57,427 nucleotides of DNA from a virus (taxonomy: Duplodnaviria > Heunggongvirae > Uroviricota > Caudoviricetes): IMG/VR virus record IMGVR_UViG_2778261297_000008, one strand, 5' to 3'. Of this stretch, positions 43,978 to 45,849 are shown piece after piece. The position numbers and the translations under genes were made by a program. Below the pieces are notes generated by a model. It made no database searches and had not been told where the DNA came from. It worked only from the letters and a program-made list of their open reading frames with translations. Numbering within the stretch: position 1 is the stretch's first letter; each line of letters opens with the position of its first letter.

Positions 43978-44077
43978 CCGCAGACACGTCGTATGCAGGA
44001 ACGTGCTGCGGCTGGCTGGTGAACTTTCGATAGTGCGAGTATTGAATGATTTCCAGCCGTTATCGATTTTACGTATT
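43978..44077. repeat. Copy 1 of a 100-bp direct repeat (~92% identical to 45750-45849)
   Basis: Ungapped alignment by eye: 8 mismatches in 100 bp; non-coding in both copies. Confidence 0.75.
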
Positions 44078-44415
44078 AATTAATGAACAAACCACTCGTC
44101 AGCAGACTCCCAGGTATCTTTCAGAGTCTCCTGAACAAAAGCATTAGCAGAATCCTTATCTGCGGTGTAGGTAACAGGAAAATCATCGCTATGGTAGCTT
44201 TGACGCTCATCTCCATACCATAAAATATCAAGAGATTACGACTCATTTCCCCATGATTCTTCACCAACCAACAGTTCTATCAACATAAGATGTAAACTCA
44301 TAAACTAAGTAAGATAAAAAAATTAACAGAATTTTGTTGATTTCATGTCTGTGGAGTGTTAACTTAAAATGAGACCTGAAGTACTGAAGGTCTTTGACAC
44401 ACTGGAGAAGCAACT

Positions 44416-44775
44416 ATGTTAACGCCGTTTGGTAAGACAGTAAGAAAAATGCGCATAGACTTGGGGCTTACGCTTAAAAGCATGGCTGAGGCTATGGGCA
44501 TGACCTCGTCTTATCTTTCAGCGATCGAAACTGGTAAAAGGGCGGTCACTAAGCCCGTGCTTGATAGCATCATTAGCTATTTTAATGCGGATGAAAAACA
44601 AAAAGAAAAGCTTATCAGTGCAGCTCGTGACTCTCAGCAGTCAGTAGAGATCAGCTTGTCAGGTAAGAATGGCCACGCTCGTGAAGTCGCAATTGCGTTC
44701 GCTCGTAGTTTTGATGAGTTAAATGAAGAAGACTTCCGTAATTTACGACAGATTTTGAATCGAAAACAGCAGTAG
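44416..44775 (+). CDS. XRE-family HTH transcriptional regulator
   Basis: 119 aa, HTH (LKSMAEAMGMTSSYLSAIETGKR); SD GGAG. Confidence 0.8.
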   Translation: MLTPFGKTVRKMRIDLGLTLKSMAEAMGMTSSYLSAIETGKRAVTKPVLDSIISYFNADEKQKEKLISAARDSQQSVEISLSGKNGHAREVAIAFARSFDELNEEDFRNLRQILNRKQQ

Positions 44776-44783
44776 GAGGCGGC

Positions 44784-45305
44784 TTGAGCGGACAAGATTA
44801 TCGTGTACCTCCGCAGAATCGTGAATCAATACGTTCTATCGTCAGATCTCTGCGGAGCGCATTTGGTATTACTGGGCTTAAATTCCCTGTAATGGAGGTA
44901 ATTGAGTTCGCATTGCCTCAGTTGATCCCGGATTTTGAGTTCCACATTGGTGGTATGAAAGAAATGGGAGAGACGCATGGTCTTACATACCCACAGGAAC
45001 ATTTATTGATTCTGCGCGAAGACATTTACGAAGGCGCTTTGAATGGGGTAGGGCGAGATAGGATGACTGCCGCGCATGAACTGGGTCATCTTCTTATGCA
45101 CAGGAACATCGCATTTGCTCGTTCTGCCCCAGGGGTAAAAATCCGCCCTTTTGAGAGTAGTGAATGGCAAGCTAAATGTTTTAGTGGTGAGTTATTAGTG
45201 CCAGCTATGCATGCCAGTATTTTAAAAGGTATGACGGCTGAGGATGTTGCTGAGGCATGCGGAGTTTCATTAGTGGCAGCGCGTTATCAGCTAGACAAAA
45301 TGTAA
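44784..45305 (+). CDS. ImmA/IrrE-family zinc metallopeptidase (HEXXH)
   Basis: HELGHLLMH motif; TTG start 5 nt after AGGAGG; co-oriented with and 8 bp after the XRE gene. Confidence 0.8.
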   Translation: MSGQDYRVPPQNRESIRSIVRSLRSAFGITGLKFPVMEVIEFALPQLIPDFEFHIGGMKEMGETHGLTYPQEHLLILREDIYEGALNGVGRDRMTAAHELGHLLMHRNIAFARSAPGVKIRPFESSEWQAKCFSGELLVPAMHASILKGMTAEDVAEACGVSLVAARYQLDKM

Positions 45306-45308
45306 AAA

Positions 45309-45345
45309 CCCCTTGCTTGGCGCCAACCAGTGCAAGGGGCTTTAG
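45309..45345 (+). terminator. Candidate terminator after the ImmA-like gene
   Basis: Inverted repeat CCCCTTGC...GCAAGGGG with 15-nt loop and weak T tract. Confidence 0.35.
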
Positions 45346-45458
45346 GTGATGAATCCAAGAGGCATCACCACCGTGAACAGCTTCGATAGACAGCCTGAAA
45401 TTAACACCTTCAGGGAAGATGTTCAAGGGAAAAATCTCTCTTGGTAAGGAGGTGTTTT

Positions 45459-45563
45459 ATGAATGGGTTTGAAATCAATTGCTTCAAAAGCGGCGCCCAA
45501 AGGGTTCCGTTGGGTTTTCTGCCGTTACCGCAAGGTGCGTGGGAAATCAAAAAAAGTCCTTGA
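45459..45563 (+). CDS. Possible small protein (34 aa) with strong SD
   Basis: AAGGAGG 6 nt before ATG; translation MNGFEINCFKSGAQRVPLGFLPLPQGAWEIKKSP; terminator downstream. Confidence 0.3.
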   Translation: MNGFEINCFKSGAQRVPLGFLPLPQGAWEIKKSP

Positions 45564-45626
45564 TGCTCATGATTACGGGTACGAGGCGTGGGCATTTTTA
45601 GTGCGCTGCTAAGGGTTAGTATTTAA

Positions 45627-45648
45627 GGCACCTGCGGGTGCCTTTTTT
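45627..45648 (+). terminator. Intrinsic terminator
   Basis: Hairpin GGCACC-TGCG-GGTGCC followed by TTTTTT. Confidence 0.65.
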
Positions 45649-45749
45649 GTATCCTCACCACCCGATTGGTGTTTTGCTGAGCCTGATAACTACCAATTTT
45701 TGTTATTACTATTCTACTATCGCTCAATCATGATTGGCGGGAGTTGAAA

Positions 45750-45849
45750 CCGCAGCCACGTCGTATGCAAGAACGTGCTGCGGTTGGCTGGTGAACTTCC
45801 GATAGGGCGAGTATTGAATGATTTACAGCCGTTATTGATTTTACATATT
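45750..45849. repeat. Copy 2 of the 100-bp direct repeat
   Basis: See copy 1. Confidence 0.75.

Follow-up and report, generated by a model that had tools for sequence, protein, structure and literature searches.

The 57,427-nt stretch of DNA analysed here (IMG/VR record IMGVR_UViG_2778261297_000008, a virus of the class Caudoviricetes; the whole stretch is referred to below as the window) carries a small cassette consisting of an XRE-type regulator gene, an ImmA/IrrE metallopeptidase gene and a short open reading frame (ORF), bracketed by two direct repeats of 100 nt. This arrangement raises the question of what the repeats are and how the cassette came to lie between them. We argue, with a probability that we put at roughly 0.8, that each repeat is the tail of a dinI-like prophage gene and that the cassette became bracketed through an illegitimate crossover, followed by homologous recombination within the repeat copies.

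Two copies of one non-coding unit

A repeat search reproduces exactly the pair that a first-pass annotation of the window had reported, 43978-44077 and 45750-45849, with a start-to-start spacing of 1772 and a gapless alignment in which 92 of 100 positions are identical. We refer to the 100-nt unit as U and to its two copies as U1 and U2; they differ at unit positions 7, 21, 35, 50, 57, 76, 87 and 96. The internal inverted repeat noticed previously is present in both, the first 34 nt of each having the form CCGCAG-N-CACGT...ACGTG-CTGCGG, and a degenerate pattern for this 34-nt hairpin matches at these two sites alone in the 57-kb window, against 0.00 expected from 100 shuffles. The features concerned are:

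43978-44077, minus strand: U1, a dinI-like 3' untranslated region (3'UTR) with a predicted terminator hairpin, mosaic (sequence comparison)
43978-44011, minus strand: the hairpin of U1, CCGCAG A CACGT ... ACGTG CTGCGG (fold)
45750-45849, minus strand: U2 (repeat search and locus comparison)

The repeats had also been taken to be non-coding, and this stands. U occurs in length variants of 99, 100 and 101 nt, stop codons are found in 20 of 79 copies, and there is no excess of variation at third codon positions. Coding on the minus strand in frame with dinI, the frame left open past the dinI stop codon and the sole open frame of U, was rejected on the same stop codons and because third codon positions are the least variable.

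Distribution of the unit

In order to establish how widely U occurs we searched 5426 complete Escherichia coli genomes with U1 by BLAST. Of these, 5389 contain the unit, which has 16662 occurrences in all (per genome, median 3 and maximum 10), as compared with 13 genomes for the cassette. U is thus a generic, widespread element with no tie to the cassette, a finding that the first-pass annotation had named as one that would refute its reading. It is present as well in 197 phage records, including lambda, phi80, mEp460, HK106 and the Stx phages. Lambda has a single U at 24162-24261, between ea47 and ea31, where it follows ea47 as U1 does in the window. In E. coli K-12 MG1655 (NC_000913.3) a full, unannotated U is located near the left end of the Qin prophage (1632466-1632565; L159 7467-7566) and Rac carries, towards its right end, a copy with the hairpin only (1434731-1434768; L160 26732-26769), with no dinI gene beside either. 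U is, then, an unannotated, near-universal 100-nt unit of E. coli prophages, lambda, Qin and Rac included. A literature search for its core sequence, on both strands and as DNA and RNA, returned no match, and no paper describing U was found.

An exact 25-nt core pattern, run against a collection with one genome per species, is confined to Escherichia and Shigella, lambda contamination aside, and within these genera U is housed in lambdoid and some Mu/P2-like prophages, in the variable cargo region that runs from the tail-fibre genes to the end with the attachment site. Matches to the core in Pseudomonas, Shewanella, Streptomyces, Enterococcus, Vibrio, Paenibacillus and other genera fall on small, low-coverage contigs or on contigs ∼48.4 kb long (L127-L158), and these evidently reflect contamination of public assemblies with lambda DNA.

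U follows a dinI-like gene and ends in a hairpin

In annotated prophages a DinI-like gene, encoded on the opposite strand, has U directly downstream of it, after the tail-fibre genes and at the prophage end near prfC, yecD and similar sites. Among 147 loci fetched by means of the U core pattern, the stop codon of a minus-strand dinI-like ORF lies 2-3 nt from the right end of U in 68, a lambda-type right flank is found in another 38 to 45, and the remainder have other flanks. A second sample was picked through the DinI protein and is unbiased for U; here 68 of the 79 genes have U after them. On the left the unit adjoins about 49 distinct contexts, most of which end in an A-run, corresponding on the minus strand to a T-run after the hairpin, with at least 4 T in 8 nt in 35 of the 49 and at least 5 in 25.

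The minus strand of U folds into a 6-bp stem, GGCUGG/CCAGCC, around a 31-nt loop, followed directly by a GC-rich hairpin of 13-14 bp, so that about 66 nt of 3'UTR precede the hairpin; folds of the whole unit give -27 to -34 kcal/mol, with z from -2.0 to -4.6. In mEp460 the hairpin is followed by UUUUUCUUUUUC. Compensatory changes are apparent in the hairpin: over 79 distinct copies 20 cells are altered on both sides of a pair, as compared with 7.2 +/- 4.4 after shuffling (none of 500 shuffles reaches 20), 5 of the 14 pairs are altered on both sides, and variant stems such as CCGTAG/CTACGG and CGCGG/CCGCG occur. From these changes together with the usual T-run we infer that U, whose position and structure are seen directly, is the 3'UTR plus predicted intrinsic terminator of a prophage dinI-like gene. 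In a native locus the hairpin and T-run would stop leftward transcription ahead of the convergent tail-fibre genes. The gene in question is a prophage paralogue, since the 3'UTR of the chromosomal dinI of K-12 is very short and unrelated to U and the prophage DinI-like protein is 46% identical to K-12 DinI.

No Rfam family matches U at its gathering score. The Shigella small RNA (sRNA) CssrB (RF02799) was considered and set aside, as it scores 23.2 bits against a gathering score of 76, with the 3' hairpin alone aligned (the last 30 or so model positions match the hairpin of U on the plus strand); CssrB gave no match at the gathering threshold in native Shigella loci, and a literature search for it returned unrelated material. 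A sigma-70 promoter within U was likewise dismissed, the one weak match being specific to copy 2 and at chance level. Separately, at one locus (L075 1544-1581) a deletion within U has brought unit position about 59 right up against the 3' end of dinI, which shows that U undergoes illegitimate deletions as well.

The block travels by crossovers inside the repeats

The three cassette genes do lie between U1 and U2, as annotated at first pass. Two further features had escaped notice, namely a stump of a dinI-like gene next to U1 and a shared 108-nt segment, 'ext', to the left of U2. The block and its flanks comprise:

41640-44077: lambda-like block with the end of stf, tfa, ea47 and U, 97.9% identical to lambda 21824-24261
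44080-44213, minus strand: frameshifted dinI-like 3' remnant of 134 nt, with about 44 C-terminal codons (annotated so in RefSeq at the nearly identical E. coli EC09 locus)
44416-44775, plus strand: XRE-type helix-turn-helix (HTH) regulator, 119 amino acids (HTH_31/HTH_3 above Pfam cut-offs)
44784-45305, plus strand: ImmA/IrrE (Peptidase_M78) metallopeptidase, 173 amino acids, TTG start (Peptidase_M78 above Pfam cut-offs)
45463-45612, plus strand: orf49, 49 amino acids, phrog_33859 (ORF and conservation)
45625-45644, plus strand: strong intrinsic-terminator-like hairpin with T-run, closing the XRE-ImmA-orf49 unit (terminator scan)
45641-45749: 'ext', the 108-nt segment left of U2 (locus comparison)
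45656-45671, plus strand: second intrinsic-terminator-like site (terminator scan)
45725-45736: perfect 12-nt palindrome CAATCATGATTG within 'ext' (sequence)
45850-45941: right flank of U, of the lambda type, with homology to lambda 24262-24352

The whole block from U1 through the dinI stump, XRE, ImmA, orf49, terminator and 'ext' to U2 (43978-45849, 1.87 kb) recurs at 98.5-99.7% identity in 7 of the 5426 genomes and in metagenome and other assemblies, with the stump as part of the conserved block in every context. On the left it adjoins lambda ea47, tfa, or a tail-fibre region of Mu/P2-like type that includes a Pin invertase and a GIY-YIG gene, and on the right an intact dinI and prfC, a lambda-type flank with DUF6650 and AbiTii genes, or other genes. 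Homology to the window starts exactly at 43978 in 8 loci and at 44079-44081, just past U1, in 3.

The flanks of the block in the window are those of phages with one U and no cassette. On the left, homology to lambda over 41640-44077 ends exactly at the right end of U1, and prophages with the order ea47-U-dinI-prfC match the window up to 44213, the end of the dinI stump; on the right, window 45750-45941, which includes U2, is 84% identical to lambda 24162-24352. Since lambda matches both flanks, it represents them with a single U and no intervening cassette, so that lambda and the ea47-U-dinI prophages supply the single-copy arrangement for which a search had been recommended.

The copies themselves are mosaic. 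In the contexts with a GIY-YIG gene U1 departs from that of the window at positions 7, 13, 21 and 32 alone, all in the hairpin half, and over positions 37-100 all the examined copies of the cassette block agree. Up to position 49, U1 of the window has the sequence of the lambda copy; over the last 51 positions the two differ 8 times, where about 1 difference would be expected from the 2.1% divergence between window and lambda over the preceding 2.4 kb. U2, when it has a lambda-type right flank, is the copy of the window, and when it has dinI on its right differs from it mainly at positions 57-99; the U2 of the window is also the copy found in prophages L092, L033 and L179, where an EcoRII-type restriction-modification system lies to the left of U in place of the cassette. 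The left half of U1 thus varies with what lies to its left and the right half of U2 with what lies to its right, and therefore crossovers have taken place inside the repeats. Because the crossover points within U1 and U2 vary with context and no recombinase travels with the block, general homologous recombination is indicated rather than a site-specific system. The repeats are homology arms for general recombination and the arrangement is ordinary lambdoid mosaicism. The suggestion that they are recombination sites mobilising the cassette is therefore half right: the block does recur with breakpoints at or inside the repeats, but there is no dedicated site, the crossovers vary and a recombinase is lacking.

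Chi was considered as an explanation and dropped. U contains GCTGGTGA (44015-44022 and 45787-45794), one base off Chi, and true Chi octamers (GCTGGTGG) number 18 in the window, with 14 on the plus strand and all at 3341-20829, away from U; the pattern GCTGGTGR matches 22 times in the window against 3.7 expected. Lambdoid prophages rich in Chi have been described (PMC12315714), and the window prophage is of that kind. The lambda chi+B mutation may map near U.

Origin of the bracketed arrangement

In strain 600 and in E21845 the order is tfa-U1-dinI stump-cassette-ext-U2-intact dinI-prfC, and this arrangement likely shows how the block originated. As a first step, the XRE-ImmA-orf49 module would already have been situated to the left of one U when a single illegitimate crossover fused a position upstream of XRE to one within the dinI gene of a different prophage. 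The product would have had U1 and the 134-nt dinI stump on the left and 'ext' and U2 on the right, with an intact dinI next in the arrangement that looks most ancestral. As a second step, ordinary homologous recombination (by RecA or by phage Red/RecET) within U1 and U2 would have carried the 1.87-kb block into different prophages; in the case of the window, the lambda-like tfa-ea47 region would have been gained on the left and the lambda-type flank with DUF6650 and AbiTii on the right. Tandem duplication in situ is an unlikely origin, as U1 plus stump and U2 plus dinI are merely 87-88% identical, a value that two parental phages fit better than duplication in place.

Several observations weigh against parts of this account. 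The covariation in the hairpin is modest and part of the 3' arm of the alignment is out of register. Both window copies have poor T-tails on the minus strand, the hairpin of U1 being followed by CTCTACCA (2 T in 8 nt, a degenerate terminator tail as in lambda) and that of U2 by TTTCAACT (4 T in 8 nt), so that they may not terminate transcription here; a consensus terminator scan of the window called neither. A plain dinI terminator does not explain why U is retained without dinI in lambda and in K-12 Qin, and the sharp left edge of U over the about 49 unrelated contexts is accounted for loosely by selection that keeps the hairpin. The identity of 87-88% means that the founding event is old or took place between two different phages, and an exact reconstruction is impossible. 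Finally, no exact product of a deletion between U1 and U2 with the window's own flanks is present in the 5426 genomes.

The cassette and the repeats are separable

The cassette is found in 0.24% of the complete genomes, 7 of the 13 occurrences comprising the full block, one lacking U1, one cut by IS1 and 4 having 89% identity. A diverged copy of this last kind is located beside a phage integrase gene near yejO, with 89% identity at the DNA level and 97% (XRE), 95% (ImmA) and 96% (orf49) at the protein level, and has no U, no hairpin and no 'ext' with it; the cassette does not need U. These results bear directly on two of the possibilities raised at first pass.

The first takes the repeats for an operator or promoter region in duplicate, to which the XRE protein of the cassette would bind, in keeping with an inverted repeat in each copy and with the placement of the copies on either side of a regulator gene. 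However, U occurs in 99% of genomes and the cassette in so few (5389 against 13), the diverged cassette lacks U, and no repeat of at least 12 nt is common to U and the region upstream of XRE (44214-44415). In addition, with its 13-bp stem, rich in GC and showing compensatory changes, the inverted repeat behaves as a terminator does. With near certainty, then, an operator role is excluded.

The second is that the repeats are the ends of a small degenerate element, the remnant of an insertion sequence (IS) or a miniature inverted-repeat transposable element (MITE) carrying the cassette. A discrete 1.87-kb block with repeated ends in several contexts does have the look of such an element, but the repeats are direct and not inverted, there is no transposase in the block and no target-site duplication. 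A single U is the rule, each one tied to dinI or to a lambda-type flank, the ends are mosaic, the flanks are resident prophage sequence and the cassette copy at 89% identity is free of U, and we give this explanation almost no credence. Repeats of this kind should accordingly not be annotated as mobile-element ends or as operators. The 'modularity' perceived at first reading is better seen as the footprint of recombination between prophages through a shared terminator and 3'UTR.

As for the genes of the cassette, in PADLOC the XRE protein is matched best by HTH_VI (generic, slightly higher) and capH (E = 3.6e-10), and ImmA by capP (E = 6e-11). The orf49 protein is 96% identical in the diverged copy where the DNA is 87% identical, the changes being mostly synonymous, a pattern by which orf49 can be recognised as a real small gene under purifying selection. 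It is the sole constant partner of the pair, the neighbours of the cassette varying with context (GIY-YIG, Vpar_1526, RT-SLATT, dinI, DUF6650/AbiTii). Exact ImmA and XRE proteins occur in 961 and 2261 blocks, respectively, of a public assembly collection, always in prophage cargo regions, and varied defence-type genes adjoin them on record, including GIY-YIG, RT-SLATT, Vpar_1526, AbiTii and restriction-modification systems.

The 'ext' segment is 71-75% identical to a segment in other prophages that do not have the cassette. Its palindrome, which at least 15 further prophage loci without the cassette conserve in the form CCAATCATGATTGG immediately left of U, looks like a putative protein-binding site. 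At the start of 'ext' there is a small hairpin with a T-run, the pairing of which is preserved by a compensatory change (CACCG..CGGTG as compared with CACCA..TGGTG).

Arrays of hairpins and cargo

In 14 of about 150 loci selected by pattern a hairpin-only copy is situated 1-4 kb to the left of a full U, with minus-strand cargo between the two that consists of a 222-amino-acid S-adenosylmethionine (SAM) methyltransferase, a 257-amino-acid GIY-YIG protein, an EcoRII-type restriction-modification system or a 334-amino-acid protein. In strain E4 a restriction-modification system takes the position of the XRE cassette, with an identical ext-U2-DUF6650-AbiTii region to its right. The unit position at which a hairpin-only copy ends is 36, 38 or about 59, in each case a few nt short of the stop codon of the cargo gene, so that the hairpins would serve as terminators of those genes, with junctions that do not fall at one fixed point.

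Such arrays call to mind a dedicated site-specific recombination site, of an att-like or attC-like kind, at which a recombinase supplied in trans would take up and release cassettes between hairpin-bearing repeats. U and hairpin-only copies are co-oriented in all 30 of the 30 loci with at least two hairpins, hairpin-cargo-U-cargo-U arrays carry differing cargo (SAM methyltransferase, GIY-YIG nuclease, EcoRII-type restriction-modification system, XRE cassette), the ends of the block coincide with those of the repeats, and a Pin-type invertase is nearby in some contexts. On the other hand, the crossover points in U1 and U2 differ by context, just as the ends of the hairpin-only copies do, the block has no recombinase and the lambda-type context no invertase, reading of the sequence reveals neither an attC-type RYYYAAC/GTTRRRY core nor a gix- or hix-like site in U, and the cargo genes are found on both strands. 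The block and its surroundings have genes for XRE, the M78 peptidase, orf49, DUF6650, AbiTii and IS110, with no integron-type tyrosine recombinase among them. We consider a dedicated site very improbable, and prefer to regard U as a dinI-like tail that offers homology to general recombination.

A possible small RNA

The persistence of U without dinI is addressed by an explanation that is compatible with the one preferred here, in which U is an SOS-linked sRNA derived from the tail of the dinI-like mRNA and selected in itself; extra copies such as U1 and those of lambda and Qin would persist for that reason. The order of stem-loop, terminator hairpin and U-tail is the usual layout of Hfq-binding sRNAs derived from 3'UTRs, and a precedent is provided by DinR of Klebsiella pneumoniae, which arises by processing of dinI's 3' end and represses ftsZ (PMC10907235). 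A search of the literature on dinI-proximal sRNAs or hotspots in lambdoid prophages turned up DinR as the sole analogue. U does persist without dinI in lambda and Qin, and a LexA box is annotated upstream of dinL in phi80. A location at the 3' end of an SOS-type dinI-family mRNA is found in native loci, while in the window dinI is a stump (U1) or absent (U2). Against this, U has no Rfam match at gathering score, is no more conserved than the adjoining dinI coding sequence and bears no relation to the 3'UTR of K-12 chromosomal dinI, the U-tail is missing in the lambda copy and in U1, and the literature search for the core sequence gave nothing. We regard such an RNA as unlikely, if less so than the other alternatives.

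By analogy with DinR one may nevertheless picture U, in about 99% of E. coli genomes, as a unit under selection, a DinR-like SOS sRNA that might also serve as docking homology for hopping cassettes, a speculation on which we would place equally modest weight. If it were true, docking at U would amount to a recombinase-free analogue of an integron array, moving defence and regulatory cassettes between co-resident prophages. In any case U is a unit that can be named and that could be examined as an SOS-linked 3'UTR RNA.

Neighbouring features of the window

The window is nearly identical to E. coli EC09 (NZ_CM169492.1), with 3 differences in 12100 nt (41844, 42192 and 42849). The last of these converts codon 296 of ea47 to a stop, so that the 410-amino-acid lambda-type Ea47 is seen as ORFs of 304 and 69 amino acids. 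To the right of U2 (46219-49167) there is a DUF6650 gene, a minus-strand AbiTii gene and an insertion of the IS110 family (ISEsa2), and in related loci a type I restriction-modification system follows. The segment 46219-49167 is thus cargo at the prophage end that resembles a defence island. Inside tfa, at 42132-42330 on the plus strand, Rfam RF02111 (IS009) aligns over its full length at 226.9 bits (gathering score 117), a match that recurs in tfa of prophages L003 and L146, so that this 'sRNA' family is contained wholly within a tail-fibre-assembly coding sequence.

Comparison with known systems

DinR resembles U in being the tail of a LexA-controlled dinI-family mRNA that ends in a terminator hairpin (PMC10907235); it derives from chromosomal dinI together with a Klebsiella-specific stretch, whereas U belongs to a prophage paralogue with 46% identity to K-12 DinI. 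Integron attC arrays likewise have cargo divided by co-oriented repeats of about 60-140 nt that contain imperfect palindromes. The arrays described here differ in having neither IntI nor core sites, variable crossovers, cargo on both strands and ordinary terminators as the repeats. U1 and U2 can also be likened to attL and attR, as direct repeats around a block that some genomes carry and others lack, but the block has no integrase and the repeats are 92% identical, mosaic and resident in host prophages everywhere.

CapH/CapP and ImmR/ImmA are repressor-protease pairs that respond to DNA damage. The cassette shares with them the order of an HTH repressor gene followed by an M78 metallopeptidase gene and a setting among defence-type genes; it is set apart in that the pair is always accompanied by the 49-amino-acid phrog_33859 gene and that its other neighbours change with context. 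By this likeness XRE-ImmA is a candidate member of the DNA-damage-responsive repressor-protease pairs.

The closest parallel is with the mosaic joints and morons of lambdoid phages. Lambdoid genomes evolve in modules, with short conserved segments between exchangeable modules, and morons are genes added with their own terminators, a picture that is said to be due to Susskind and Botstein, to Juhala et al. 2000 and to Hendrix. The locus studied here provides an example at the level of sequence of cargo swapping in the region between tail-fibre genes and att, with crossovers mapped to about 20-50 nt within a 100-nt unit, the cargo being a CapH/CapP-like pair plus a small gene here and a restriction-modification system, a GIY-YIG nuclease or a methyltransferase elsewhere. 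Like the known joints, U is a short conserved non-coding piece between variable modules, with internal crossovers and terminator-bounded cargo, in the lambda b or tail-fibre-to-att region. It differs from them in being a specific unit that can be named, a dinI-like 3'UTR plus predicted terminator, which is present in 99% of E. coli genomes and here is duplicated around its cargo.

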